Source: Formosa sp. Hel1_33_131 (lineage in GTDB: Bacteria > Bacteroidota > Bacteroidia > Flavobacteriales > Flavobacteriaceae). From it: DNA of 32,000 nucleotides. The stretch lies in NCBI RefSeq assembly GCF_001735745.1, contig NZ_CP017260.1:240001-272000 (forward strand), written 5' to 3'. The translations under genes and the position numbers were made by a program. Positions within the stretch are counted from its first letter, which is position 1. Each line of letters starts with the position of its first letter. Below, one piece after another: positions 7,930-32,000 of this stretch. The notes below the pieces were generated by a model. It did not search any database and had not been told where the DNA came from. It saw only the letters and a program-made list of their open reading frames with translations.

Positions 7930-8691
7930 ATGATAAAACTATCAGGAGTCATCATAACGTACAATGAAGAGGAGCATTTAAGAAAATGCCTGTCCTCTTT
8001 AGTTGACGTTGTGGATGAAATTATTGTCGTAGACTCCTACTCTACTGATAAAACACAAGAAATTTGTAAGGAGTTTAATGTGACTTTTATACAACAAAAG
8101 TTTTTGGGATATTTTGAACAAAAAAACTTTGCGTTAGAACAAGCAAGCTACAATCATGTACTGTCTTTAGATGGTGATGAAGCGCTTTCTGATAAGTTGA
8201 AATCCTCCATCTTAGAAGTTAAAAAAAATTGGAAATACGCAGGCTATTATTGCAATAGAAGAAATAATTATTGTGGGAAATGGATTCGCTTTTCAGATTG
8301 GTATCCAGATAAAAAATTAAGACTTTTCAAAAAGGACAGTGGAGAATGGAAGGGCATCAATCCGCATGATACTTTTAAATTAAAAAGCAATATCAAAAGT
8401 GGCAAATTAAAAGGCGATATTTTACATTGGATTTATAGAGATTACGACGAACATAAACAAAAAGTTGAACAGTTTTCGACCATTGGCGCAAAATCTTATT
8501 TTGATTTAAAAATTTCGGCTTCTCTTTTTAAAGTTTACTTCAGACCTTCATGGGCGTTTTTTAAATCTTATATTTTAAGACTTGGGATTTTGGATGGAAA
8601 ATATGGATGGCGCATCTGCAAACAAGCATTTATCGTTACCTATTTAAAATACAGTAAATTGAGGCAACATTGGAAAAATTCAAAAGCATAA
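7930..8691 (+). CDS. glycosyltransferase family 2 protein, WaaE/KdtX-like
   Basis: ATG at 7930 gives MIKLSGVIITYNEEEHLRKCL...VDEIIVVDSYSTDKTQEI...SLDGDEAL...GILDGKYGW. The longer track ORF from 7900 would overlap the upstream gene; 7930 lies 3 nt after its stop. Confidence 0.85.
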   Translation: MIKLSGVIITYNEEEHLRKCLSSLVDVVDEIIVVDSYSTDKTQEICKEFNVTFIQQKFLGYFEQKNFALEQASYNHVLSLDGDEALSDKLKSSILEVKKNWKYAGYYCNRRNNYCGKWIRFSDWYPDKKLRLFKKDSGEWKGINPHDTFKLKSNIKSGKLKGDILHWIYRDYDEHKQKVEQFSTIGAKSYFDLKISASLFKVYFRPSWAFFKSYILRLGILDGKYGWRICKQAFIVTYLKYSKLRQHWKNSKA

Positions 8692-8735
8692 ATTGAATAA
8701 AAAATTTAATTAACGTTTAAAACTGCACTAAACAT

Positions 8736-9842
8736 ATGAACCTTTTACAAATTACAGTCTCAGAAGTTTGGAGAGGTCATGAGCAAAAAATAATATATTT
8801 ACACGAAGCTTTCGAGGATAATCCTGACATTCATAATCAATTTATTCTCTGTGCTAAAGACACCCCTGTATATGATATAGCGGTGGAAAAAAAAATGCAA
8901 GTCACTGGACTTAATGTTTCTTCAGAATACGATTTCAAAATTGCAAAACAAATTTCTGAATTCATTAAAGAACATAAAATTGACATCGTGTTCATACACA
9001 GTAGCAAGGCGCATACACTCGCTGTCATTTCACATTTAGTATTTAAACATTCCGCACACCTTGTGCTGTGCCGTACCCTGATAAAACGGGTTGATACAAA
9101 TTTTTTCAGGAAATGGAAGTACAATTATAAGGGCATAAAAAAAATAATTTGCGTCTCAAACCCAGTCGTAGATGTTTTAAAATTTGCCGTGAAAGACCAC
9201 TCAAAAATGTGTGTCGTTGGAAGTGTAACGGACGTCAATAAATTTACTAAAACTGAAAAAAATGGACTTTTGCACAAGGAATTTAACATTCCGAAAGACC
9301 ATAAAATTATAGGTAATATTGCTGAATTCACAGGGTTCAAGGATCATTATACTTGGATCGATGCCGTTGAAGAATTAGTAAAACGAAACAGTTTTAAAGC
9401 GACTTATATTATAGTCGGAAAAGGAAGTCTTGAAAAAGACATCCGAAGTTATGTAAGCGAAAAAAACTTAGAAGCCCACATCGTTTTTGCAGGGTTCAGA
9501 AAAGACATTCCAGAAGTACTGCCAGAATTTGATTTGTTTATGTTCACCTCAAACAATGAGCCTACAGGAGGTGTATTGTTAGAGGCCTATGCATGTCGCG
9601 TTCCCATAGTGGCAGCGAATGCAGGGGGAATTCCAGAAGTAATCGTACACAATGAAACGGGGCTTTTAGCTGAAGTTGGCAACCCTATAGATTTTGCAGA
9701 CAGGGTGGAGTATTTGATGTCTAACCCTAAATTACAAAAAGAATTCACAGAGAACGGCTATCAATACTTAGTGGACAATTTCACAAAAAAGGTCATTGCA
9801 GAAAAAATGTATAAGGAATTAGCTCAAGTAATGGAGCTGTAA
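8736..9842 (+). CDS. glycosyltransferase family 4 protein
   Basis: C-terminal GT4 (Glycos_transf_1) signature EPTGGVLLEAYACRVPIVAANAGGIPEVIVHNETGLLAE. Length is 368 aa. Confidence 0.85.
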   Translation: MNLLQITVSEVWRGHEQKIIYLHEAFEDNPDIHNQFILCAKDTPVYDIAVEKKMQVTGLNVSSEYDFKIAKQISEFIKEHKIDIVFIHSSKAHTLAVISHLVFKHSAHLVLCRTLIKRVDTNFFRKWKYNYKGIKKIICVSNPVVDVLKFAVKDHSKMCVVGSVTDVNKFTKTEKNGLLHKEFNIPKDHKIIGNIAEFTGFKDHYTWIDAVEELVKRNSFKATYIIVGKGSLEKDIRSYVSEKNLEAHIVFAGFRKDIPEVLPEFDLFMFTSNNEPTGGVLLEAYACRVPIVAANAGGIPEVIVHNETGLLAEVGNPIDFADRVEYLMSNPKLQKEFTENGYQYLVDNFTKKVIAEKMYKELAQVMEL

Positions 9843-17307: not shown

Positions 17308-17377
17308 TATATTTCAAACCCATTAATTAAGTATTGTTTTTTGTGATAAAACAAGAAACTTAAACTAATTAGTTTTG

Positions 17378-20300
17378 ATGAAATACGTTGCTCTATTTAT
17401 TTTTCTAATTACATCTTTATCAAGCTTCTCTCAAGGAGAAGCTTCTCATTGGTATTTTGGGAATGGAGCAGGCTTAATATTTGACACAAATACGGATACG
17501 GTTTCCCCTACCAGTGCAGCTTCCTCTACAATAAACACAAACGAAGGCTGTTCTTCCATTTCTGATTCTAACGGGAATTTATTATTCTATACCGATGGTC
17601 GAAATGTGTGGGATAAAAACCATCAAATAATGTCAAATGCGAATTATAACAATGGCAATGGATTGCTTGGAGACCCCTCAAGCACCTCCTCTGGTTTGAT
17701 CATTCCACGTCCGGGAAATCCTGATAATTATTATGTATTTACAGTAGATGAACCGCATCATAATAATGCATGGGCCTATCCAAATCAAGGGCCGGCAGAT
17801 GTCAATGGAAATACGATTTCTCAATACGATGACCCTGGAGGAGGAGGAGGCTCTGTACCAAACGGCGATGACGGTTTTAATAACGGCCTTAACTATTCTT
17901 TGGTCGATTTGACAATGAATGGTGGCAACGGGGATGTTGTAAGTACCGAAAAAAATAGACCTCTTTTAACCTATGATCCTTTAGATCCAGAGCAAGCGAG
18001 TTTTAAGTGTTCTGAAAAAATTACAGCTGTTGAGCATAATGATGGGCAATCGTATTGGGTTTTAAGTCATTTTATGGATGTCTTTTATGCCTTTCGTGTG
18101 GATGCAAATGGCGTGAATACAACTCCCGTTACCACTCAAATAAATCCCCTTATTACACTCAATGGATACCGCCGGAATTCGATTGGCTATTTAAAATCCT
18201 CCCCCGATGGTACTAAATTAGCGATCTGTCATCACGAACAAGGAACGACTCAGGGACAAAGTGCAAACAGTACGGGAAGTTTTTGGCTTTACGACTTTGA
18301 TGACGCCACAGGAATCGTTAGCAACCCGATGAATCTCGGAAGTAATTCTGGCTTTTATGGGGCCGCCTTTTCAACAGACTCCAGTAAACTATATACGAGT
18401 GCTGGGAGTTCTGTCTATCAATTTGATTTAGATGCAACGGATATCTCTGGGTCTCAACAAACCGTTCAGCAGGGTGGTAATTCTATTTTTGCGCTTCAAC
18501 TTGCGCCTAATGGAAAGATATACGGATCGGTTTTCTCCAACAGTTCATTCCTAGATGTCATTAATAATCCAGATGAATTGGGTGCATTGTGTAACTATGT
18601 AGCAGCAGGTCAAGCCTTGGCTCCAGGCACACAGGCTCGTTTAGGCTTACCTCCCTTTATCCAATCTTTTTTCTTAGCTAAAATTGAAGCTGATAATTTA
18701 TGTTTTGGCAGTGCCACTCAGTTTTCTATTGATAGCAATGAAAATTTTGATAGTATTCAATGGGACTTTGGAGATTCTAGTGCAATGAACACTATCGATT
18801 CTCCAACGCATGTTTATGCAAATACAGGAATTTTTACAGTCTCAGCGACCCTTACTTTAGGTACTGAAGTGAATACCTTTTCAAAAACAATAGAAATTTT
18901 TGAAGTTCCAACGGCATTTAGCCCAAATGATGTTTTAGAATGTGATGATGATAACGATGGTGTAGCCGCTATAAACCTCAACCAAACTACGGATACCGAA
19001 ATATTAAATGGACAACTCCCCCTTAATTACACCATTAAATATTACGAGTCGCAAGTAAATGCGGACACTGATATGGGTGCACTGGCAATGCCTTATCAAA
19101 ACACAAGTAATCCACAGACTCTTTTTGCTCGAATAGAAAACAACTCAAATCAAGAGTGTTTTGATACTACATCCTTTTTGTTAACGGTATTTGATACGCC
19201 AACAGCAAATGCTGTTGCGAACAACGAAGTCTGTGATGATTTTGTGGACGGAGATGGAAGCAACGGCCAAAAAATAACGAACCTTCAAATTTTTGATATG
19301 GATGTGTTAGGATCTCAAGATCCTTTAAAATTTAGGGTGAGCTATTATCAGTCACAAACAGAGGCCGATACGAAAACAAATCCACACCCCTATTTATACT
19401 ACAATGTCACCCCTATAACAGAAGAAGTATTTGTTCGAATTGAAACCATTTTAAATGAAAATTGTTTTGACACGACTTCCTTCAACCTAGTTATAAACCC
19501 CTTACCTGAAGTTATGGGTCTCAATCTGTCACAATGTGATGAAGACGGAATCTATGATGGACTCACAATTTTTAACCTCACGGAAATAAATACAACGCTT
19601 ATAAATAATGTTCCTGACCGAGTTACAAAATTTTATACGAGCTTAACATCTGCTCAAAACTCAACGAATGAAATCGATGGAACGGCGTTTAGCAATTCTT
19701 CAAACCCACAAAATGTGTATGTGCAACTTATTAACTCTAACACAAATTGCTTTGATATTGCAGAACTAACCTTGGCAGTAAATGTCACCACAGGAACAGA
19801 TACAACATTAGAGTCTTGCGATTCTGATGGTACCGAAGATGGACTTTTCAATTTCACCTTAACGGATGCCGATGCTGCGGTGCTTGCTGGCTTGCCTGTA
19901 ACTTATACGCTCAGCTATTATGAAACCTACCAAGAGGCTCTTTTAGAAACCAATCCCCTCACGGCTAATTATACCAATACCACTCCTTACAATCAAACTC
20001 TGTTTGCACGTATTGAAAATGACAATAATTGCTATGGCATCAATCAAGTTGAATTGATCGTGCATGAACTTCCACAGATTGTTATTGAGGAGGAACGCAT
20101 TTATTGCCTAAATACATTTCCTGCTATAATTACGTTAGAGGGTGGTGTCCTCAATGGATTTCCGAATTCATTTTTTTATGATTGGTCTACAGGTGCTACC
20201 ACGCCTCAGATTCAAGTCAATTCAACAGGAACTTATACGGTCACTGTGAGCGATGCCAATGGCTGCTCGAAGCTAAGAACCATCACAGTGCTGCCTTCTA

Positions 20301-20782
20301 ATACAGCAACTTTTGATTCCATAGAAATTGTAGATGCTGTTGAAGCTAATTCCGTCACTATTTTTGTGTCTGGAGAAGGTGATTACGAATATGCTTTGGA
20401 TACGGAGTTCTTTGGATTTCAAGACTCAAATACATTTATTGGAGTTGGACCTGGGTTTCATACGGTATATGTGAGAGACAAAAACGACTGTGGGACGGTC
20501 AAAAAGAATATATCTGTGATTGGATTTCCTAAATTTCTCACTCCCAATGGAGATGGATATAATGATCGCTGGCATGTGTATGGAATCAATACTCCAAACC
20601 AAGCAAACAGCAAAGTGTATATTTTTGACCGATATGGAAAATTGCTTATTCAATTAAATCCTTTAGGTGATGGATGGGATGGTACTTATAATGGTGCTAT
20701 TATGCCAACTTCAGACTATTGGTTTTATGTCAAACTAGAAGACGGACGCTTTTTTAAAGGACATTTTACACTAAAAATATAA
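17378..20782 (+). CDS. T9SS type B sorting domain-containing surface protein (propeller-like head, PKD domain, 4 Cys/DxDxDG repeats, Ig-like region, type B CTD)
   Basis: Signal peptide MKYVALFIFLITSLSSFSQ. The N-terminal HWYFGNGAGLIFD...LLFYTDG...YYVFTVD region is common in Bacteroidota type B cargo. PKD signature WDFGDSS...THVYANTGIFTV lies at ~18701-18903. Four repeat modules have first-Cys codons at 18941, 19232, 19535 and 19817. The C-terminus FLTPNGDGYNDRW...IFDRYGKLL...WDGTYNG...DYWFYV is the gliding-motility-associated C-terminal domain (TIGR04131-type, T9SS type B) at 20528-20779. Confidence 0.9.
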   Translation: MKYVALFIFLITSLSSFSQGEASHWYFGNGAGLIFDTNTDTVSPTSAASSTINTNEGCSSISDSNGNLLFYTDGRNVWDKNHQIMSNANYNNGNGLLGDPSSTSSGLIIPRPGNPDNYYVFTVDEPHHNNAWAYPNQGPADVNGNTISQYDDPGGGGGSVPNGDDGFNNGLNYSLVDLTMNGGNGDVVSTEKNRPLLTYDPLDPEQASFKCSEKITAVEHNDGQSYWVLSHFMDVFYAFRVDANGVNTTPVTTQINPLITLNGYRRNSIGYLKSSPDGTKLAICHHEQGTTQGQSANSTGSFWLYDFDDATGIVSNPMNLGSNSGFYGAAFSTDSSKLYTSAGSSVYQFDLDATDISGSQQTVQQGGNSIFALQLAPNGKIYGSVFSNSSFLDVINNPDELGALCNYVAAGQALAPGTQARLGLPPFIQSFFLAKIEADNLCFGSATQFSIDSNENFDSIQWDFGDSSAMNTIDSPTHVYANTGIFTVSATLTLGTEVNTFSKTIEIFEVPTAFSPNDVLECDDDNDGVAAINLNQTTDTEILNGQLPLNYTIKYYESQVNADTDMGALAMPYQNTSNPQTLFARIENNSNQECFDTTSFLLTVFDTPTANAVANNEVCDDFVDGDGSNGQKITNLQIFDMDVLGSQDPLKFRVSYYQSQTEADTKTNPHPYLYYNVTPITEEVFVRIETILNENCFDTTSFNLVINPLPEVMGLNLSQCDEDGIYDGLTIFNLTEINTTLINNVPDRVTKFYTSLTSAQNSTNEIDGTAFSNSSNPQNVYVQLINSNTNCFDIAELTLAVNVTTGTDTTLESCDSDGTEDGLFNFTLTDADAAVLAGLPVTYTLSYYETYQEALLETNPLTANYTNTTPYNQTLFARIENDNNCYGINQVELIVHELPQIVIEEERIYCLNTFPAIITLEGGVLNGFPNSFFYDWSTGATTPQIQVNSTGTYTVTVSDANGCSKLRTITVLPSNTATFDSIEIVDAVEANSVTIFVSGEGDYEYALDTEFFGFQDSNTFIGVGPGFHTVYVRDKNDCGTVKKNISVIGFPKFLTPNGDGYNDRWHVYGINTPNQANSKVYIFDRYGKLLIQLNPLGDGWDGTYNGAIMPTSDYWFYVKLEDGRFFKGHFTLKI

Positions 20783-20857
20783 ATTGTTTTTTGATACTTA
20801 AAACGATCTCAATTACTCTCTTACTGTCTTTCTTAAAAATCTCAATTATTAAACAAT

Positions 20858-21058
20858 GGAATCAATACACACAACGAAGTCAATAGCGAGGTGTATCTTT
20901 TAGACCGGTATATAAAACTGCTTATCAAATTAAACCCTTTAGGTACTGGTTGGGAAGGTACTTATAATGGCAAACTCACTCCTACTTCGGACTATTGGGT
21001 TTATATTATACTTCAAAATAATAAAATATTTCGAGGACATTTCACATTAAAACGCTAA
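20858..21058 (+). pseudogene. orphan 3' remnant of a T9SS type B CTD gene (last ~66 codons plus stop, no start)
   Basis: Translation of 20858-21055 is GINTHNEVNSEVYLLDRYIKLLIKLNPLGTGWEGTYNGKLTPTSDYWVYIILQNNKIFRGHFTLKR followed by stop. It aligns residue-for-residue with the end of the upstream gene (GINTPNQANSKVYIFDRYGKLLIQLNPLGDGWDGTYNGAIMPTSDYWFYVKLEDGRFFKGHFTLKI). An in-frame TAA at 20834-20836 closes the frame upstream and there is no N-terminal part. Confidence 0.8.
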
Positions 21059-21140
21059 TATTTTGTAAGTAAGTTGTTTTTTAAAAAAAAAAGATGTAAT
21101 TTAAATATATATTATTTTAAGGAAGTTAAACTACCCCCAT

Positions 21141-24100
21141 ATGTTTAAATTATTTACAATATTCTTATTTTTCTCATGCGCCATGGTTTGTGCCCAAACT
21201 ATAGCGATTGACTCTAGTGTTCCGGTAGAGGAACTTATAGAAACCCACCTTTTTGATGGTTGTATTGAAGTTTCAAATGTAAGCAGCTCTGTCAATGGGA
21301 GTGTCATTGGCTTAACGAGCTTTGGAACTTTTTCAAAATCAACTTCAAATTTTCCTTTTGATAATGGAATTGTTTTGTCTACTGGAAATACAAATTCTGC
21401 AGGAAATACGGTTATTACAGCAAACTTAAATGAGGGGGATACAAACTGGGGGACGGATTCTGATTTAGAGGATGAACTCGGCATTACCAACACATTTAAT
21501 GCGACTTCCATTGAATTTGATTTTATTTCAGCTCTTGACAAAGTACGTTTTGAGTATATTTTAGCTTCCGAAGAATATCTGCAATCAGCGTATATCTGTA
21601 ACAATCAAGATGTTTTTGCGCTCCTTATAAGAGAAGCGAGCAGTGCAGGACCTTATACAAACATTGCTAACGTGGGTCCTCAAAACGATCCTATTAGTCC
21701 TGGTTCTATACACCCCGAAATATTTGGGTTTTGTAGTGCTAAAAATTAACCCTTTTTTGACAACTACTCAGTAGGAGATACTAATTTTGATGGCCGTACA
21801 ACTCCTATTTCATCAATCGCTAACATCACACCCAATATCCTGTACCATGCAAAGTTAATTATTGCGGATGGCGTTGATCAAAACTTTGACTCGGCTGTAT
21901 TTATAAAAACAAGTGTTGTGATGCCCGAATTAGACTTAGGAAACGATATAAGTAACTGTGCAAGTTCAGTAGATTTGAATGCGGATATAGGTATTACTCC
22001 CTCTACATATGACTGGTATTTTAACAATGTATTGGTTTTAGCAGATGGTGGTACCACCTTCACAGCAACCCAAACAGGAAGTTATACGGTAAAAGTTACG
22101 ATTCTCTTAAACCAAACGGACTGTATTCATGAAGACACCATCAATGTGACATTAAGTTCCGTACAAACTATAAATCCTGTGTCTGATTATGCGCTTTGTG
22201 ACCCCAATGGCGATGGGTTTGAAAATTTTGATCTATCCACTAAAGATTCAGATGTTTTAGCGGCAGCACCCCCCGCTTCCTATGCCATTTCATACCATTT
22301 GACTCTTGCAAATGCAGAAGCAAATATGAGTCCAATTACAACAAGCATCCAAAACAGCAGCAATCCACAAGTTGTTTATGTACGACTCGAAGATACTACG
22401 GGATGTTTGGCGTATGCCCCTATTAATTTAGTGGTCAATCCCATTCCACCACTTCCAACTCTTATGCCGTTTATCGTATGTGACAGTGATGCAGTAAGAG
22501 ATCAAACGACTGCTTTAGGTTTAACGTCTTTTGACCCCACCATTACCAACGGGGATGCTAATCTTGGCGTAAGCTACCATGCATCACTAGTAGATGCTTC
22601 ATCAGGAAATAACCCACTCGCTTCTAATTTTAGTGCTTCATCGTTACAATTGTTTGCAAGAATTTTTAATATAAACACAGGCTGCTCTAATGTGACTCCT
22701 ATTGATGTAGAAGTGTATAATACTCCCGAACTCTATACCGAGCCAATATTTTTAGATGCCTGTGACCCTGATCATGATGGATTTGCAAGCTTCAATTTAG
22801 AAACTGCTCTACCCCTAGTAATAGCAAACTTAACAGGCTTAACTGCTAGTTTTTATACTTCGATGACAAATGCACAAACGAAAACAGATCCAATACCCGA
22901 TCCAACAAATTATACAAATACAACTACCACAGAAGAGGTTGTATATGTGCGCATCGAAGATGATGTGTCAGGGTGTTTTGGTGTGCGATCCTTTGAAATT
23001 CATACCAATTTATTGTTATCAGAAACAGATTTAAGACCCATTACTTTTTGTGATGAAGATGGCGATGGCATGCATACGTTTGATTTAGACCCTGTAAGTG
23101 ATCTAATTAAAAATATGTTGCTAGGACGGACTCACCATCACCTATTACGAAACCCAAGACGACCAAAATAATAACATCCCCATCACAACACCCACATATA
23201 CTTTTACGGGGCCTTCTGTTACCTTATTTATAGATATTGAAAGTAGCAGTTGTCTGGAACAAACTGAGATTGTTTTTGACTTGATAGACGTGGTGCAATT
23301 CGGCAATATTCCAGACCAAAGAATTTGTGATACGGATGATGATGGTTTTACGGTTTTAAACCTCAATAACTTTGATGCTGCTGTAACAGGAAATCAATCG
23401 GGCTTTCAAGTGCTTTATTTTGAATCTCTTACAAATGCTGAAAATAATATTGGAGCACTCCCAAACAACTATATAAATATTACGAATCCTCAAACTTTAT
23501 ACGTGAGTGTTACAGAAAGTGCTACTGCTTGTGCAGATACCAGTTCTTTTGAAATAACAGTGGTTCCTGCAGCTGTCATCAATCCGCCTTCTCCTATTGT
23601 GATTTGTGATGATGATGGGGATGGCTTTTTTATTATTAATTTAGAGGGGTTAATACCTTCTTTAACTTCTACGCCGAATACCGTTGATTTTTCTTTTTTT
23701 ACAAGTTTAAATAATGCAAATCTAGAAATCGATCCTATAACCGCGACTACCGCATTTGATGCCCAAACTCAAACGCTATACATTCGCGCAGAAGAAAATT
23801 TAACAACCTTAAGATGTCCCGTAATTGTTCCTCTCAACGTCATTGTAAATACGCTACCCATTATTCCTACAATTGAAAATTACGATGTTTGTGTCGACAG
23901 TTCTACCAACCCTACTTTCTTAATGAACACAAAGGATAATGAAATTCTAAACGGACAAAATGGCAAAGAAGTATTCTATTACGAAGATGCTGGTTTCACA
24001 CAATTAATTGATAAAAACCAACCCTATATTGGCAACAACTTTCCACAAACAATTTTTGTGAAAGTTGATAACATCACAGACTCTAATTGTTTTTCCACCG

Positions 24101-25950
24101 CTTCTTTTTCAATAAACATCATACCCTTCCCTGTTTATAATGATACTATTAATGTGGATGTTATTGGGTGTGACACTAATCAAATAGATGGGAAAATAGA
24201 CATTGATTTCAATACGATCATCAATACGTTGACACAAGGCATTACCCCTGCTCCAATGATTTCGTTTTTTACGACCTTAAGCAACGCCGAAAACAACACT
24301 GCTGCACTTCCCTTAAATTATGAAAATACCAGCAACCCACAAACCCTATTTATTAGAATTGAAAACAGCAGTAACGGATGCTATTTAACAGATAGTTTTG
24401 GGATTAATGTATTGTCAACTCCTAACGTTAGACAGGTTAATAACCTCACTAAATGCGATACGGATTATGATGGACTCGGTATTTTTAATATAGAAGATTT
24501 TGAAATTGAAATTTTTGATGTTCGACAAAATTTTCTCATTGCAACTTATTATGACAGTTTACAGAATCTTGAAAATGGATTTCCTGAAATCCCAGATGTA
24601 ACCGCATTCCAAACTACTTCCAACCCTCAAATAATTTATATAAAAGTATTAAATACAGCGACACAATGCTTTACTTCAGCTCCCTTAACACTGACTTCAA
24701 TTTTACCCCCTGCTATCAATCCGATATCTGAGTTTGTGATTTGTGATACGGACACCAATACGTTTGAATTATCAGAAATAAATACGGTTTTAACATCAGT
24801 AACTCAAAATATTTCAATCCATTATTTTGATTCCTTAATGAATGCAGAAAACAATCAAAATCAAATTACAATTTTAAACTATCAATCAAGTAACACTCCT
24901 CTTTTTGTTCGAATTCAAAATACCTTAACAAATTGTTTTCATATTCACAATTTCAACTTCATTGTCAATCCACTTCCGATCGCCAATCAACCGCCAAATT
25001 TAGAAGACTGTGATGATGATTTTGACGGAGAATTAGAGTTTGACATATCTCCACAAACCCTTTTAATTTTAGGAACTCAAAGCCCTTCTAATTTTACCGT
25101 CTCTTATTATGAAAACATGGCTGATGCTGAAGTAGGCAACAACCCGTTAAACCTAACGTTTACAGTTGTTAATACAAAATCTATTGTCGCTAAAATTGTA
25201 AATAACACCACACAATGTGAAAACTATACGTCATTTACTATAATCGTGAACCCAATACCAATAGTTGATATTCCTAAGCAAGTAATTTGTTTGGATAACT
25301 TACCGCTTGTGGTGAGTGCTGACACATTTAACAATGGGGATACTTACTTATGGTCTACGGGTCAAACTACTAGTGAAATTATTATTAATACGATTGGAGC
25401 CTATTCCGTAACTGTGACCACCGCAAAAGGCTGTGTAAACAGCTCAAATTTTGAAGTGATTATTTCTGAAGCAGCCACGATAGAATTTACGGAAGTATTA
25501 AATTTCACAGACCCTAACTCTATTACGGTTACTATAGAAGATGGTATTGGGGATTACCGATATCAATTAGATAATGGACCTCTGCAAACTTCAAACTTTT
25601 TCAACAATGTAACTTTAGGGTATCATACCATTACTGTAGTGGATTTAAATGGCTGTCGCGAAACTACCAAAGAAGTACTTGTGATTAATGCACAAAAGTT
25701 TTTTACTCCTAACAATGACACTTATTTTGACACTTGGAATATTGTTGGAATCGAAACACTCCCAGGCTCTGTTATTTATATATTTGATCGTTATGGAAAA
25801 CTTCTTATTAATTTAAATCATGATTCAGGAGGTTGGAACGGTACCTATAGGGGTAATGAAATGCCTGCTACTGATTACTGGTTTTTGGCGAAAATAAAAA
25901 CACCAACCGAAGAATTTGAATACAAAGGCCATTTTACTCTAAAACGATGA
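21141..25950 (+). pseudogene. disrupted giant T9SS type B cargo gene (choice-of-anchor L head, Ig-like region, 11 Cys/DxDxDG repeats, type B CTD); ~1601 codons if repaired
   Basis: Three track ORFs (21141-21749, 21918-23171, 23281-25950) are pieces of one gene. (1) TAA at 21747-21749 is in frame. The text continues across it as ...GFCSAKN*PFFDNYSVGDTNFDGRTTP...YHAKLIIADGVDQNFDSAVFIKT, an uninterrupted choice-of-anchor L domain. (2) A direct GGAC GGAC duplication at 23124-23131 shifts the frame by +1. Deleting one copy restores ...IKNMLLGLTITYYETQDDQNN, which matches sibling repeats (e.g. IANLTGLTASFYTSMTNAQ). The signal peptide is MFKLFTIFLFFSCAMVCAQ. The CTD at 25693-25947 reads QKFFTPNNDTYFDTWNI...IFDRYGKLL...DYWFLAK. 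Confidence 0.85.
24421..25950 (+). repeat. 1.5-kb dispersed direct repeat: modules B'-C'-A' plus tail, collinear with 28330-29859
   Basis: First-Cys codons at 24454 and 28366 are offset by 3912 nt and the stops by 3909 nt (a one-codon indel, TVTIEDGIGDY vs TVMVKGVGDY). Protein text is collinear throughout at roughly 80-85% identity by eye, with long identical nucleotide runs in the CTD. Confidence 0.85.
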
Positions 25951-25995
25951 CTTGAAAATACTCAAAAATTGACATATTAGTAAATCCCCAAATTT

Positions 25996-27180
25996 ATGAA
26001 AATCAATATTAACTTATTTATTATAGCAATTCTGCTATTTAACCTATTGCCCGCTCAAAACATTTCTTTGTTCAACCAATTAAATGGACATTTAGATTAC
26101 ACAGCGATTGGTAACACCCTTAATAAGTCCGAAAATAACGGTTCTTCGAACTGTATAATTAACACGAATTCTTCAGCAACCTTAAACTTATCTCCTACAC
26201 AAACCGTTGAAGCCGCTTACCTCTATTGGGCAGGCTCGGGGTCTGGCGATTTTAATGTGACTCTAAACACCACCGATATCACACCCTCACGAACCTTCGC
26301 TTATAACATAGGTACTAGACGGCACTTTTTTGCAGCATTTGCAGATGTGACCACTTTAATTCAAACGGAAGGAAACGGTTTATATACCCTTAGTGATTTA
26401 GAACAAAACGTATCGACATATTGCTCTCCTAGCACAAATTTCGCTGGTTGGGCCATTACCATCATTTATTCAGACCCCGCACTTCCCTTCAATCAAGTAA
26501 ACGTCTATGATGGCTTAGAAACTGTCCCTCGTAGTATCACAATTCAATTGGACAATCTTAACGTCATAGATACCACAGGGGCAAAAGTAGGTTTTATAGC
26601 ATGGGAAGGCGATGCTGGCTTGGCTGTGAATGAAGTATTACAAATGAACGGAGTAACCTTTAGTAACCGACCTCTTAATCCCGCAAACAATGCCTTCAAT
26701 GGCACCAATAGTTTCACGAACGATTCCAATTTATACAATATGGATATAGATGTTTATTCTATAGAAAACGCTATCAATGCTGGTGATACCTCTGCAGTCA
26801 TACAATTAACTTCTGGGCAAGATTTAGTAATGGTGAATAATATCATCACCGTATTAAATAGTCAATTACCAGATGCGAGTGTCACTATTGACTCTGTTGA
26901 CCAACGCTGTAACCCTCGTGAATTAACCATTGAATATACTGTAAGAAACTTAAATTCTATGCGATTACTGCCTGCAAATACACCCATCGCTTTTTATGTT
27001 GACACTGTTTTAGTCGCCCAAGCACAAACGTCAAACGATATTCCTGGTGGCGGAACCGAATCTAATACGCTCACTTTTACAGTAGATCCTTTGTTTTTGG
27101 ACCCTATTAATCTTACAATTGTGGTAGATGATAATGGTTCGGGAACTGGAATTATCTCAGAAATTAGTGAAACAAATAAC
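25996..27180 (+). repeat. 1.2-kb dispersed direct repeat: head plus CARDB-like region, collinear with 29905-31101
   Basis: The two gene 5' regions align end to end with a 4-codon length difference. Long near-identical runs occur, e.g. TTTGCAGATGT[G/C]ACCACTTTAATTCAAAC[G/C]GAAGGAAACGGTTTATATACCCTTAGT. Confidence 0.85.
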
Positions 27181-29859
27181 TCCGCAGTCATATCTATTGT
27201 TGCCAATCCACTTCCAATCGCCAATCAACCGCCAGATTTAGAGGATTGCGACGATAATTTTGATGGAGAGTTAAAGGTTGATATGTCCACACAAACGGCA
27301 CTTATTATAGGAAGTCAAAATCCTTCTAATTTTACGGTTTCCTATTATGAAAATAGGACTGATGCTGAATCGGGAAACAACCCCTTAGAATTAACGCCTA
27401 TAGTTGTTTATACAAAATCCGTTGTCGCTAAAATTGTAAATAATACAACGCGGTGTGCAAACTATACGTCCTTTAACCTTATCGTTAACCCTTTACCAAT
27501 AGTTGCGCAGACTCATACTATAACGCAATGCGATACCGATTATGATGGTCTTACTATTTTTAATATTAAAGATTTTGAAATTAATATTTTTGATGTTCAA
27601 CAAAATTTTCTCGTTGCAACTTATTTTGACAGTTTACAGGATCTTGAAAATGGAGTTGCTGAAATACAAAATGTAACTGCATTCCAAACAATTTCAAACC
27701 CTCAAATAATCTATATCAAAGTATTAAATACGACGAGCCAATGCTATACGTCAGCGCCTCTCACACTGACTTCAATTTTACCGCCTGCGATCAATCCGAT
27801 ATCCGAATTTGAGATTTGTGATTCCGATACCAATTCGTTTGATTTGTCAGAAATAAATAGTCTTCTAACCACAGAAACGCAAGACATTACTCTTCATTAT
27901 TTTGATTCTTTAACAAATGCTGAAAACAAAATAGACCCCATTACAGTTTTAAACTATCAATCTAATACGACTCCACTCTTTGTACGAATTCAAGATACTG
28001 TAACAAATTGTTTTCATATTCACAGTTTTAATTTCATTGCCAATCCTCTTCCAATCGCCAATCAACCGCCAGATTTAGAGGATTGCGACGATAATTTTGA
28101 TGGAGAGTTAAAGGTTGATATGTCCACACAAACGGCACTTATTATAGGAAGTCAAAATCCTTCTAATTTTACGGTTTCCTATTATGAAAATAGGACTGAT
28201 GCTGAATCGGGAAACAACCCCTTAGAATTAACGCCTATAGTTGTTTATACAAAATCCGTTGTCGCTAAAATTGTAAATAATACAACGCGGTGTGCAAACT
28301 ATACGTCCTTTAACCTTATCGTTAACCCTTTACCAATAGTTGCGCAGACTCATACTATAACGCAATGCGATACCGATTATGATGGTCTTACTATTTTTAA
28401 TATTAAAGATTTTGAAATTAATATTTTTGATGTTCAACAAAATTTTCTCGTTGCAACTTATTTTGACAGTTTACAGGATCTTGAAAATGGAGTTGCTGAA
28501 ATACAAAATGTAACTGCATTCCAAACAATTTCAAACCCTCAAATAATCTATATCAAAGTATTAAATACGACGAGCCAATGCTATACGTCAGCGCCTCTCA
28601 CGCTGACTTCAATTTTACCGCCTGCGATCAATCCGATATCCGAATTTGAGATTTGTGATTCCGATACCAATTCGTTTGATTTGTCAGAAATAAATAGTCT
28701 TCTAACCACAGAAACGCAAGACATTACTCTTCATTATTTTGATTCTTTAACAAATGCTGAAAACAAAATAGACCCCATTACAGTTTTAAACTATCAATCT
28801 AATACGACTCCACTCTTTGTACGAATTCAAGATACTGTAACAAATTGTTTTCATATTCACAGTTTTAATTTCATTGCCAATCCTCTTCCAATCGCCAATC
28901 AACCGCCAGATTTAGAAGATTGTGATGATAATTTTGATGGAGAATTAAAATTTGATATATCTCCACAAACAGCTCTTATTTTAGGAAGTCAAAATCCTTC
29001 TAATTTTACGGTTTCCTATTTTGAAAACATGGGAGATGCTGAATCGGGAAACAACCCCTTAGAATTAACGCCTATAGTTGTTTATACAAAATCCGTTGTC
29101 GCTAAAATTGTAAATAATACAACGCGGTGCGCAAACTACACGTCTTTTAACCTTATCGTTAACCCTTTACCCATAGTTGACATTCCTAAACAGCTTATTT
29201 GCTTAGATAACTTACCTCATTATGTAAGTGCTGAAACATTTAACAATGGGGATACTTACTTGTGGTCTACGGGTCAAACTACCAATAAAATTAGTATTGA
29301 TACGACTGGAACATATTCCGTAACCGTAACCACCCCAAAAGGTTGTGTGACCAGCAGCAGTTTTGAAGCGAATGTCTCGGGTGCAGCTATGATTGAATTT
29401 ACAGAAGTATTAAATTTTACCGATCCAAACTCCATCACTGTTATGGTAAAAGGTGTCGGGGATTATCAATACAAATTAGATGATAACCCCCTTCAAACTT
29501 CAAATTTTTTCAACTATGTAACTTTGGGGTATCATACCATTACTGTGGTGGATTTAAATGGCTGTAGCGAAGTGACCAAAGAAGTATTAGTCATAAATGC
29601 TCAAAAGTTTTTCACCCCCAATAATGACACCTATTTTGACACTTGGAATATTATTGGAATCGATACACTCCCAGGGTCTGTTATTTATATCTTTGATCGT
29701 TATGGAAAACTTCTTGGAACATTAGCATACAATTCAGGGGGATGGGATGGCACCTATAGAGGCTACGAAATGCCTGCTAATGATTACTGGTTTTTGGCAA
29801 AAATCAAAACGCCGACCGAACAATTTGAATACAAAGGCCATTTTGCTCTTAGACGCTAA
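25996..29859 (+). CDS. T9SS type B sorting domain-containing surface protein (unknown ~270-aa head, CARDB-like domain, 7 Cys/DxDxDG repeats in A-B-C-A-B-C-A order, Ig-like region, type B CTD)
   Basis: Signal peptide MKININLFIIAILLFNLLPAQ. The head is shared with 29905-31695. The CARDB-like segment at ~26866-27201 ends in EISETNN. The repeats span 27202-29179 and include an 837-bp tandem duplication. The CTD at 29602-29856 reads QKFFTPNNDTYFDTWNI...IFDRYGKLL...WDGTYRG...DYWFLAK. Confidence 0.9.
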   Translation: MKININLFIIAILLFNLLPAQNISLFNQLNGHLDYTAIGNTLNKSENNGSSNCIINTNSSATLNLSPTQTVEAAYLYWAGSGSGDFNVTLNTTDITPSRTFAYNIGTRRHFFAAFADVTTLIQTEGNGLYTLSDLEQNVSTYCSPSTNFAGWAITIIYSDPALPFNQVNVYDGLETVPRSITIQLDNLNVIDTTGAKVGFIAWEGDAGLAVNEVLQMNGVTFSNRPLNPANNAFNGTNSFTNDSNLYNMDIDVYSIENAINAGDTSAVIQLTSGQDLVMVNNIITVLNSQLPDASVTIDSVDQRCNPRELTIEYTVRNLNSMRLLPANTPIAFYVDTVLVAQAQTSNDIPGGGTESNTLTFTVDPLFLDPINLTIVVDDNGSGTGIISEISETNNSAVISIVANPLPIANQPPDLEDCDDNFDGELKVDMSTQTALIIGSQNPSNFTVSYYENRTDAESGNNPLELTPIVVYTKSVVAKIVNNTTRCANYTSFNLIVNPLPIVAQTHTITQCDTDYDGLTIFNIKDFEINIFDVQQNFLVATYFDSLQDLENGVAEIQNVTAFQTISNPQIIYIKVLNTTSQCYTSAPLTLTSILPPAINPISEFEICDSDTNSFDLSEINSLLTTETQDITLHYFDSLTNAENKIDPITVLNYQSNTTPLFVRIQDTVTNCFHIHSFNFIANPLPIANQPPDLEDCDDNFDGELKVDMSTQTALIIGSQNPSNFTVSYYENRTDAESGNNPLELTPIVVYTKSVVAKIVNNTTRCANYTSFNLIVNPLPIVAQTHTITQCDTDYDGLTIFNIKDFEINIFDVQQNFLVATYFDSLQDLENGVAEIQNVTAFQTISNPQIIYIKVLNTTSQCYTSAPLTLTSILPPAINPISEFEICDSDTNSFDLSEINSLLTTETQDITLHYFDSLTNAENKIDPITVLNYQSNTTPLFVRIQDTVTNCFHIHSFNFIANPLPIANQPPDLEDCDDNFDGELKFDISPQTALILGSQNPSNFTVSYFENMGDAESGNNPLELTPIVVYTKSVVAKIVNNTTRCANYTSFNLIVNPLPIVDIPKQLICLDNLPHYVSAETFNNGDTYLWSTGQTTNKISIDTTGTYSVTVTTPKGCVTSSSFEANVSGAAMIEFTEVLNFTDPNSITVMVKGVGDYQYKLDDNPLQTSNFFNYVTLGYHTITVVDLNGCSEVTKEVLVINAQKFFTPNNDTYFDTWNIIGIDTLPGSVIYIFDRYGKLLGTLAYNSGGWDGTYRGYEMPANDYWFLAKIKTPTEQFEYKGHFALRR
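27202..28875 (+). repeat. in-frame tandem duplication, 2 x 837 bp (279 codons = repeat modules A-B-C)
   Basis: 27202-28038 and 28039-28875 align at offset 837. Reading both copies base by base I found only two differences, 27210 A vs 28047 T and 27765 A vs 28602 G. Both are synonymous, and the translated text is identical in the ORF track. Confidence 0.95.
28876..29179 (+). repeat. partial third copy (module A only), mosaic
   Basis: It is identical to copies 1 and 2 for the first ~40 nt. It then diverges at ~28917-29035, where the encoded FDISPQT and ENM-DAE residues match the neighbour's module A' at 24961-25250, though the nucleotide sequence is intermediate. It is again near-identical to copies 1 and 2 from ~29036 to 29179. 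Homology to the unit ends at 29179, where the tail (DIPKQ...) begins. Confidence 0.8.
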
Positions 29860-29880
29860 CTTTAAAGTAATCAAAATTAA

Positions 29881-29888
29881 TATATTTG
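29881..29888 (+). promoter_or_regulatory. putative -7 promoter box TATATTTG (last adhesin gene)
   Basis: Exact TAnnTTTG match, 16 nt upstream of ATG 29905. No comparable box is visible in the 45-nt gap before 25996. Confidence 0.45.
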
Positions 29889-29904
29889 TAGAACAATCAA
29901 TTTT

Positions 29905-31695
29905 ATGAAACATAAACTAAATATCCCTTTTTTTAGTATAAGTGTAATGCTAATTAACCTCTTAGCAGCTCAAGACATTTCGTTGTTCAATCAACTAAAT
30001 GGACGCTTGGATTATACAGCAATCGGGAATACCCTTAATACTTCCGAAAACAACAGTGCTGTGGACTGTGTCATTAATACAGCTTCTTCGGCAAACTTAA
30101 ATTTATCTACCACACAAACCATCGAAGCTGCTTATCTGTACTGGGCGGGATCAGGATCGGGCGATTTTAATGTGACTCTTAACACCACAGAAATCACCCC
30201 CTCACGAACCTTCGCTTATAGCTTGGACTCGTCACGAGAATTTTTTGCAGCCTTTGCAGATGTCACCACTTTAATTCAAACCGAAGGAAACGGTTTATAT
30301 ACCCTTAGTAATTTAGAACAAATAAACATTTCATCTGACTATTGCTCTACAGGGACAAATTTTGCGGGCTGGGCCATTACTATCATTTACTCAGACCCTA
30401 ACCTTCCACTCAATCAATTAAACGTTTATGATGGCTTAGAAAGTGTCCCAAGTAATATCACCATTCAATTGGACAATCTTAATGTCATGGATACTAATGG
30501 TGCTAGAATCGGTTTTATAGCTTGGGAAGGCGATGCTGGTTTGGCAGTCAATGAAGTCTTACAAATGAATGGCATCACACTTAGTAACCCACCTCTTAAT
30601 CCCGCGAATAACGCCTTTAATGGCACCAATAGCTTTACGAACGACTCCAATTTATACAATATGGATATCGACGTTTATCCCATAGAAAACACCATTAATG
30701 TGGGGGATTCATCTGCAATCATACAATTATCTTCTGGACAAGATTTAGTAATGGTCAATAATATCATTACCGTATTAAACAGTCAATTACCAGATGCGAG
30801 TGTCGTTATAGACACTATTGAACAAAGTTGCAATTCTCGTGAATTAACTGTTGAATATTCTGTAGAAAATCTGAATTCCACACACTTTCTGCCCGCAAAT
30901 ACGCCCATCTCATTTTATGCCAACGCTGTCCTCGTTGCTCAAGCACAAACCCTAAACGACATCCCTATTAATGAAACGGAGTCAAATACAATTAGTGTTA
31001 CGGTTGATCCATCACTTTTAGATCCTGTTAACCTTACAATTGTAGTGGATGATGACGGTACTGGGGCTGGAATTATCACTGAAATTAGTGAAACAAACAA
31101 TACGGCTAACACCTCTATTGAATTTTTAGAATCTCCTGATCCGACTCCTTTAACTCCTTTAATAGGTTGTAATTTCGGAAACAATGAAGCCGTTTTTAAT
31201 TTACGAAATGCTTTAAATGAAATAGATTCTTCATTCGATTTAGAAACCGCTATCTTTTATCAATCCTTAGAAGATTTGATTGATGACCTAGGTGCGTTGA
31301 TAGATCCCTCACAATACATCAATTCGAACGGAGTTGACACCATCTATTTCAGAGTAGATGCAAACCCCTGTTATGAAATTTTTTCAGTGAATTTAGAGGT
31401 CAACGAATGTGACCCTAACATCCCTCAGGGTTTTTCACCCAACGGAGATGGCTTTAATGACTGGTTTAACATAGATGGGCTCTACGATGTGTTTTTACAA
31501 CACGAACTCTTAATATTCAATCGTTTAGGAGCTATTATTTTTAAAGGGAATAACGATCTTAAATGGGATGGAAAAGCCAATTACGGCCCGCTCAAAGGCG
31601 ACAACCTCTTACCTGTTGGAACCTATTTTTATGTATTGTATTTGAATGTTCAAAATGCAAAACCCAGATCTGGTTGGGTTTATATGAATTATTAA
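29905..31695 (+). CDS. T9SS type B sorting domain-containing surface protein (unknown ~270-aa head, CARDB-like domain, 1 repeat, type B CTD)
   Basis: Signal peptide MKHKLNIPFFSISVMLINLLAAQ. The head and CARDB-like region (29905-31101) are about 80% identical by eye to 25996-27180. One divergent repeat module lies at ~31132-31407. The canonical CTD at 31423-31692 reads GFSPNGDGFNDWFNI...IFNRLGAIIF...WDGKAN...GTYFYVL. A TATATTTG box lies 16 nt upstream. Confidence 0.9.
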   Translation: MKHKLNIPFFSISVMLINLLAAQDISLFNQLNGRLDYTAIGNTLNTSENNSAVDCVINTASSANLNLSTTQTIEAAYLYWAGSGSGDFNVTLNTTEITPSRTFAYSLDSSREFFAAFADVTTLIQTEGNGLYTLSNLEQINISSDYCSTGTNFAGWAITIIYSDPNLPLNQLNVYDGLESVPSNITIQLDNLNVMDTNGARIGFIAWEGDAGLAVNEVLQMNGITLSNPPLNPANNAFNGTNSFTNDSNLYNMDIDVYPIENTINVGDSSAIIQLSSGQDLVMVNNIITVLNSQLPDASVVIDTIEQSCNSRELTVEYSVENLNSTHFLPANTPISFYANAVLVAQAQTLNDIPINETESNTISVTVDPSLLDPVNLTIVVDDDGTGAGIITEISETNNTANTSIEFLESPDPTPLTPLIGCNFGNNEAVFNLRNALNEIDSSFDLETAIFYQSLEDLIDDLGALIDPSQYINSNGVDTIYFRVDANPCYEIFSVNLEVNECDPNIPQGFSPNGDGFNDWFNIDGLYDVFLQHELLIFNRLGAIIFKGNNDLKWDGKANYGPLKGDNLLPVGTYFYVLYLNVQNAKPRSGWVYMNY

Positions 31696-31725
31696 TCTGT
31701 TTTTAAAAAATATTTTTAGACTCTC

Positions 31726-31757
31726 TTTGCTCTAGCGCTTTCTTTGCATTAGCTTTG
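31726..31757 (+). promoter_or_regulatory. putative uvrB promoter: -33 TTTG (31726-31729) and -7 TAGCTTTG (31750-31757)
   Basis: The spacing of 20 nt between the elements fits the Bacteroidota TTTG-N19-21-TAnnTTTG consensus. The -7 box ends only 5 nt before ATG 31763. Confidence 0.35.
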
Positions 31758-31762
31758 CAGCT

Positions 31763-32000
31763 ATGCAATTTAAGCTTACTTCTGATTTCAAACCCACTGG
31801 TGACCAACCGACTGCTATAAAACAATTAGTAGCTGGAATTGAGTCCGATGAAAAATACCAAACACTTTTGGGAGTTACTGGGTCTGGAAAAACATTCACG
31901 GTCGCCAATATCATTCAAGAAGTACAGCGACCTACACTTGTGTTGGCGCATAACAAAACCCTTGCCGCACAACTGTATTCAGAATTCAAACAGTTTTTCC
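31763..32000 (+). CDS. uvrB: excinuclease ABC subunit B, 5' end only (runs off the right edge)
   Basis: ATG at 31763 gives [79 protein letters not shown]. This is the canonical UvrB N-terminus with Walker A GVTGSGKT. The antisense track ORF 31732-31914 is spurious. Confidence 0.9.

Follow-up and report, generated by a model that had tools for sequence, protein, structure and literature searches.

The stretch of DNA analysed here (the window) comprises 32,000 nucleotides of Formosa sp. Hel1_33_131 (contig NZ_CP017260.1, positions 240,001 to 272,000, forward strand) and contains four tandem paralogues, gene0 to gene3, the third of which, gene2, possesses a near-perfect tandem duplication of 837 bp within its coding sequence (Table 1). 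The encoded protein begins with a putative Sec signal peptide (MKININLFIIAILLFNLLPAQ, predicted by eye) and continues with a head, seven modules of about 93 amino acids (aa), an immunoglobulin (Ig)-like tail, and a type B C-terminal sorting domain. A hidden Markov model built from the repeat finds the seven module copies, which are arranged in the order [A-B-C][A-B-C]A'. Concerning the C-terminus, TIGR04131 is matched with 103.9 bits (cut-off 35) and CHU_C (PF13585) with 37 bits (cut-off 27); the gene2 product is a type IX secretion cargo of the type B C-terminal domain class. The secretion machinery is likely to be present in the host, judging from its affiliation to the Flavobacteriaceae, and the protein is presumably exposed at the cell surface. 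Type B cargo is reportedly retained at the cell surface through PorP/SprF-like partners (PMC9143113). A sprF/porP-like gene was not noted among the called genes adjoining the cluster in the window and in related loci, for which no dedicated screen was made.

Table 1. Features of gene2 and of its paralogues in the window (positions are those of the window).
Feature	Position	Strand	Remarks
gene0	17375-20782	+	1135 aa; PKD domain, four modules, tail, type B sorting domain
gene1	21141-25950	+	choice-of-anchor-L head (PF26766), 11 modules, tail, sorting domain
gene2 (host gene of the duplication)	25996-29859	+	1287-aa type IX secretion cargo
Predicted Sec signal peptide	25996-26058	+	hydrophobic N-terminus, read by eye from the translation
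N-terminal head	26059-27201	+	all-beta jelly-roll and CARDB-like Ig domain
Tandem unit 1	27202-28038	+	modules A 27202-27486, B 27487-27771, C 27772-28038
Candidate crossover interval	27211-27242	+	unit-1 coordinates; 32-nt identical stretch in a three-way alignment of the A copies
Column-564 marker	27765	+	A in unit 1, G in unit 2 (28602)
Tandem unit 2	28039-28875	+	modules A 28039-28323, B 28324-28608, C 28609-28875
Module A' (partial third unit)	28876-29160	+	one extra A-type module, 92% nucleotide identity to A
Ig/PKD-like tail domains	29161-29592	+	weak Ig_2 and PKD_6 matches; conserved in gene0 and gene1
Type B C-terminal sorting domain and stop codon	29593-29859	+	TIGR04131 over residues 1200-1287
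gene3	29905-31695	+	596 aa; gene2-type head, one degenerate module, type B sorting domain

In direct alignment, the two units are identical at 835 of 837 columns, a match which over such a length cannot be due to chance. Read in the frame of the open reading frame (ORF) 25996-29859, the unit corresponds to 279 codons, and both differences are synonymous: A at 27210 against T at 28047 (CCA/CCT, proline), and A at 27765 against G at 28602 (ACA/ACG, threonine). In a plot of identity at an offset of 837 bp, the repeat sets in at around 27200; identity is still about 92% over some 300 nucleotides (nt) following unit 2 (28876-29175 against 28039-28338) and lies at background beyond. The partial third unit is thus real and constitutes the module A', giving a total of 2.36 units, as stated in the initial annotation, which had also correctly described the in-frame duplication and its two silent differences. 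A' is a mosaic relative to A, and its equivalent of 27361-27455 is 100% identical across all three A copies. All other modules had been described as far more diverged, which holds with A' (92%) as the exception: the A, B and C modules of the host gene exhibit 26-27% protein identity to one another, and the nearest other copies of the repeat modules, situated in the upstream paralogue gene1, exhibit 80-84% nt identity. Tandem Repeats Finder reported no repeat; its longest period is 500, such that it is blind to a unit of 837 bp, and its silence is no evidence against the repeat.

The gene2 protein is identical to P0121, a protein from a closed genome record of 2,735,158 bp, and the window hence comes from a closed genome. 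For the comparison with other strains, a protein collection and its contigs were used. Orthologues 96-99% identical to the window protein are 1287, 1008 or 729 aa long and thus differ in exact steps of 279 aa; a lineage of about 87% identity comprises proteins of 1289 and 1010 aa, and a relative of 81% identity (P0016) has 731 aa. At the DNA level, single units are found in two conspecific contigs (L081 and L083, 99.3-99.5% identical to the window; L081 is 492 kb long) and two units in six others from six samples (L091-L096). Outside the head and the A modules, the conspecific strains differ from the window at 5/2794 sites upstream, 0-1/537 in B-C, 0/684 in the tail, and 1/1816. In a sister species, 88% identical to the window in nt sequence, at least four contigs contain two units (L084, L102-L104) and seven contain one (L085-L090 among those listed), all in clean backgrounds of 100-180 kb; the flanks of a two-unit contig (L084) and a one-unit contig (L088) are 99.8% identical and free of gaps. 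Unit number thus differs between closely related strains, in contigs as well as in the 279-aa ladder, and the suggestion of the initial annotation that copy number may be polymorphic within the population is borne out by one versus two units both in conspecifics and in the sister species. Concerning further searches, exact-protein look-ups with the window protein and with P0001 gave no record, a genome-contig scan with one genome per species contained no relative above 79% aa identity, a metagenome DNA scan with the C-to-A junction gave no match, and a protein-guided metagenome scan yielded four loci, which added nothing.

Concerning the age of the duplication, the A/G pattern at column 564 is found in the window and in all six environmental two-unit contigs, whereas one-unit alleles have G. 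As the pattern is common to the window and these contigs, the two-unit allele is an established one, not an event that is recent and private to the window. Between the units of the environmental two-unit alleles there are 21-22 differences, compared to two in the window; of these, 20 fall within the first 160 bp of module A, in which unit 1 exhibits a variant type (a'). In the window, this part is of the a type in both units. The near-perfect identity of the units in the window can therefore largely be ascribed to a conversion tract. Of the two possibilities named beforehand, i.e., that the duplication is very recent or that it is being homogenised, the second agrees with these counts and the tract, and the first is contradicted by the shared column-564 marker. 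At least ten arrangements of a and a' blocks over the A positions exist among alleles that are otherwise 98-99% identical, and the switching between a and a' is visible block by block at the DNA level. Such shuffling indicates repeated gene conversion between A copies, for which it is the expected pattern; some of the mosaics from short-read assemblies may be assembly chimeras.

We consider it highly probable that gene2 carries a genuine in-frame A-B-C duplication in the stalk of a type IX cargo protein, that this duplication derives from misaligned recombination, and that it belongs to a natural allelic series of one and two units. A-type modules situated 837 bp apart, including A' downstream, would act as direct repeats, between which misaligned homologous recombination, by unequal sister-chromatid exchange or by a template switch at the replication fork, would add or remove exactly three modules with the reading frame kept. 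Gene conversion among the A-type copies would shuffle and homogenise their sequence, and the outcome would be an allelic series with constant head and C-terminal anchor and a spacer of variable length. The duplication with its frame and boundaries, the alleles of one and two units in very close relatives and in the sister species, and the mosaic A copies are shown directly; the recombination mechanism, the exposure at the surface, and any influence of length on reach, binding or antigenicity are inferences. If the exchange was unequal, with A' on one template and A on the other, the middle A copy should begin with A' sequence and change to A sequence further 3'. In the window, column 9 of the middle A copy is T, as in A', and from column 42 onwards the copy is of A type; in the sister species, the middle A copy has A' bases at columns 6 and 165. 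The junction markers in the window and, independently, in the sister species fit this prediction, and the exact crossover history is uncertain, since conversion in other alleles allows alternatives.

Tandem and closely spaced direct repeats of bacteria rearrange via RecA-dependent as well as RecA-independent routes. It is possible, albeit somewhat doubtful, that RecA-independent slippage or template switching between the A copies spaced at 837 bp acted here instead of RecA-dependent crossing-over: the candidate switch interval offers only 32 nt of perfect identity and the conversion-like patches are short (50-160 bp), but the homology as a whole is long (95 nt perfect, around 300 nt at 92-99%) and ample for RecA-dependent exchange. 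By their sequence products, the two routes cannot be distinguished.

Several points weigh against the reading of a natural allelic series generated by misaligned recombination. The copy numbers are taken from assemblies, not from reads. Short-read assemblies are the source of all zero-unit and of most one-unit alleles, whose sequences are those expected if the repeat had collapsed. In the sister species, removal of unit 2 from the two-unit allele gives precisely the one-unit allele, such that the sequence of the latter is compatible with collapse as well. The long-read origin of the contigs of the series ERZ106466xx is read from contig names and indels, without confirmation by metadata. The crossover interval of the window is placed by a single marker, which is variable elsewhere (column 9 is A in L083_A2, L091_A3 and L096_A3). 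Finally, copy number is concordant between the two species within samples (see below), which could point to a sample-level technical effect.

Among the alleles matching a collapse of a known two-unit allele are L097, P0011, P0008/P0010, and L083. L097 has precisely the sequence that a shortcut via 240 bp common to the first and third A copy (A1 and A3) of the common two-unit allele would produce, and P0011 and P0008/P0010 are short-read alleles of 1008 aa equal to the expected collapse products. L083 shares with the window a 4-bp frameshift in gene1 and is therefore of the same strain lineage, yet has one unit, which is probably the result of collapse. The 729-aa alleles were rejected as proof of a zero-unit state, as they are all from short-read assemblies (L082, MEGAHIT k141; L097, SPAdes) and match the collapse product. 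The 729-aa allele of L082 (7749-10126, compared with 28874-31250 of the window) is 99.3% identical to the window up to module A and only 91.8% downstream, where it resembles the sister lineage; the allele has either recombined in nature, or the contig is a chimera put together by the assembler at the repeated module.

These alleles could be explained by a copy number fixed at two, the 1008-aa and 729-aa forms being artefacts of collapse or consensus, the more so as six of the seven conspecific ERZ106466xx contigs have two units and as L083, in spite of the frameshift private to the window's lineage, and the concordance within samples point in the same direction. We regard such a fixed number as improbable. 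The ERZ106466xx contigs bear names in the style of Flye, and those of lower coverage exhibit isolated 1-bp indels splitting conserved genes, e.g., uvrB, a pattern which points to a long-read consensus; PacBio HiFi/Flye bloom metagenomes of this kind have been published, although the link to these accessions is unconfirmed. A repeat of 837 bp should lie well inside single reads of several kb, which renders the counts of one and two units in these contigs credible, among them the seven one-unit and at least four two-unit contigs of the sister species. Furthermore, in L081, a 492-kb contig with the long-read error signature, the second A copy reads T9 / a' / a / a and runs into the tail, and the B module has G at column 564; as more than one switch is needed to derive this allele from L091-L096, it constitutes a distinct real haplotype and no collapse product, and a single deletion in a two-unit allele does not yield it. 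In our reading, alleles with one unit and with two units really exist, and zero units is an unverified state. Short-read assemblies probably under-report copy number at gene2. The caution that the assembled number may be inexact applies to short-read assemblies and finds no support for this genome, given the closed record and the six independent two-unit contigs.

Concerning the concordance, both species have the same copy number in all five samples in which both were assembled (ERZ10646643, 649, 655, 663 and 685; contigs L081, L087, L084, L091, L093, L095, L096 and L102-L104), i.e., two units each in four samples and one unit each in one. With p = 0.2 (Fisher's test conditional on margins), it was rejected as a significant association; it may be due to chance or to a technical effect at the level of the sample, or the two species may have been sorted ecologically in parallel. 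That stalk length is ecologically sorted and non-neutral, with both species independently maintaining alleles of one and two units and with variants tracking a condition shared by both, is a rather remote idea. If true, length would follow a factor such as attachment to particles, the phase of a bloom, or pressure by phages or grazers, and the three-module block would generally switch the length of type IX cargo proteins composed of such modules.

That the second unit in the window is a false expansion by the assembler and the true gene has one unit is extremely unlikely: tandem repeats can in general be over-expanded, and the two unit differences could be strain variants mis-threaded via a de Bruijn loop, but such a loop requires k of at most 31 at the 32 identical nt, the closed 2.74-Mb genome record contains an identical protein, the column-564 marker recurs in six independent environmental two-unit contigs, and the sister species possesses two-unit contigs, too.

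Long near-identical in-frame repeats in surface proteins are known to change in number by recombination or slippage. The organization of gene2 is similar to that of the Alp/Rib (alpha C, Rib), Esp and Bap-type proteins, in which in-frame, near-identical DNA repeats form a stalk between head and anchor and repeat number differs between strains. There are, however, differences from these proteins of Gram-positive cocci: the host of gene2 is a Gram-negative member of the Bacteroidota with type IX export, each repeat comprises three modules with little similarity to one another (26-27% aa identity) instead of one module, zero to two units are seen instead of a dozen, and immune selection is no obvious driver in seawater. 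Neither the repeat domains of Rib, Bap and Esp nor an LPXTG sortase anchor are found in the gene2 protein by Pfam and NCBIfam. By these sequence characters, gene2 appears as an analogue, not a member, of the Alp/Rib, Bap and Esp families. With near-identical units whose number varies between strains (the short-read alleles being perhaps collapsed), it has the properties of a variable-number tandem-repeat surface protein.

With the mobile adhesins SprB and RemA of Flavobacterium johnsoniae, gene2 shares the phylum, the type IX route, the TIGR04131/CHU_C class, and the character of a large repetitive surface protein; unlike in these, its module is a two-cysteine domain of about 93 aa, probably FIDD, and a role in gliding is not implied. 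The SprB repeat (PF13573) is not among the Pfam matches of the gene2 protein. The choice-of-anchor-L/FIDD/type B proteins of the Flavobacteriaceae, i.e., gene1 and its homologues, e.g., in Psychroserpens and Winogradskyella, possess the same module type, tail and sorting domain as gene2, and their module numbers likewise change in threes (11, 14, 17). Their head is PF26766, whereas that of gene2 is jelly-roll/CARDB-like, and their triplet duplications are older, with around 90% identity.

Repeat-number variation via unequal recombination is already well known, and the understanding of repeat variation is unchanged by the present case. Length-variable repeat proteins are best known from pathogens; gene2 constitutes a clean example from an abundant marine flavobacterium. 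Of interest is the natural allelic series documented for two marine species that occur together, and likewise the conversion mosaics, the rule of three, and a module fold for which no relative has been solved. The series, with one or two units and many conversion mosaics, is visible in public metagenomes, and the rule of three, extending over four paralogues, explains how stalks grow and shrink. Where metagenome-assembled genomes (MAGs) give a length of 1008 or 729 aa for this gene, the value should not be relied upon as it stands.

Concerning the module itself, PF26689 (FIDD) and PF13585 are precomputed for orthologues 97-99% identical to gene2, and PF26689 also for all four paralogues in related loci, the matched residues not being displayed. 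The module of about 93 aa is thus probably the Pfam family FIDD, for which a literature search under this name found nothing relevant. Neither modules nor head gave a match in the Pfam library used here, which holds neither FIDD nor choice-of-anchor-L. The alignment of the modules contains two invariant cysteines. In the AlphaFold2 model, module A is compact and consists of six strands together with two short helices (predicted local distance difference test, pLDDT, 92.9). A profile search revealed no sequence relative of the module in the PDB, and Foldseek found by fold weak Ig- or cadherin-like matches only (best E = 0.09, template modelling (TM) score at most 0.46). The predicted fold may so far be absent from the solved structures, and the module, with a confident predicted fold and no solved neighbour, is a reasonable target for structure determination.

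The head of gene2 is all-beta in its AlphaFold2 model (381 residues, pLDDT 85.7) and resembles the N-terminal sugar-binding jelly-roll and Ig domains of GH2 (Foldseek, E around 1e-6, TM around 0.2); a PDB profile search gave no significant match for it. PF07705 (CARDB) is present in homologues of the head, and the domain is widespread across the Flavobacteriaceae; by its head sequence, the window groups with Formosa-like marine members of this family. The modelled layout fits a binding head on a modular stalk, and adhesin is, from this hint of fold only, a plausible label for the protein. Over 1206 bp, the head accounts for 20 of the around 30 differences between the window and the conspecific contigs (1.7% compared to 0.1-0.2% elsewhere). 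At least one of these, NIGTRRHFF in place of NTSPRREFF, resembles SVGTRRHFF of the sister species, and these sister-like residues suggest an imported recombination patch.

In the array, the head of gene2 is similar to that of gene3 (25999-26718 against 29914-30639, 78-83% nt identity), and the part comprising B-C-A', tail and sorting domain is similar to the end of gene1 (27508-29741 against 24433-25832, 80-84%). Because its head resembles gene3 and its modules, tail and sorting domain resemble gene1, gene2 looks chimeric, which suggests an origin by recombination inside the paralogue array. Module counts shift in threes in several of the paralogues: gene2 orthologues have 1, 4 or 7 modules, the choice-of-anchor-L paralogues across genera 11, 14 or 17, and gene0 has four in the species of the window and one in the sister species (846 aa). 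The gene1 of the sister species contains an older tandem duplication of three modules (846 bp; L084, 7598-8421 against 8444-9270, 90% identity), which accounts for its 14 modules compared to 11. From these counts and from the older duplication, the triplet is the unit by which stalks repeatedly grow; at the DNA level, similarity is presumably highest between modules three apart.

In the window, gene1 is a pseudogene, disrupted by a stop at 21747 and by a 4-bp duplication (GGAC) at 23124-23127, whereas it is intact in L081 and L091 (1601 aa). The nonsense change (TAA versus GAA) is absent from L081 and L083; the frameshift is common to the window and the short-read contig L083. ORF 21918-23171 was considered as the missing head of the upstream gene; this was rejected, as the ORF does not resemble the head of gene2 and represents the middle part of the disrupted gene1. 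In a Formosa MAG (L001, 4857-12087), which is 84-88% identical in nt sequence to 20856-32000 of the window, a single head-bearing gene is found where the window has gene2 and gene3, such that gene number in the array varies between species, too. Directly 3' of gene0, ORF 20891-21058 encodes the remnant of a type B sorting domain (55 aa), apparently left over from a paralogue that was lost or truncated; the stretch 20856-21058 is 77% identical in nt sequence to the end of gene0 (20580-20736), and in the equivalent place the sister species possesses a 100-aa ORF with a weak CHU_C match. Within this remnant region, at around 20899, a GT-rich stretch reads GTGTATCTTTTAGAC compared to GTGTGTGTGTGTTTGAC in L081 and L083, from which it differs by two 1-bp gaps and several substitutions.

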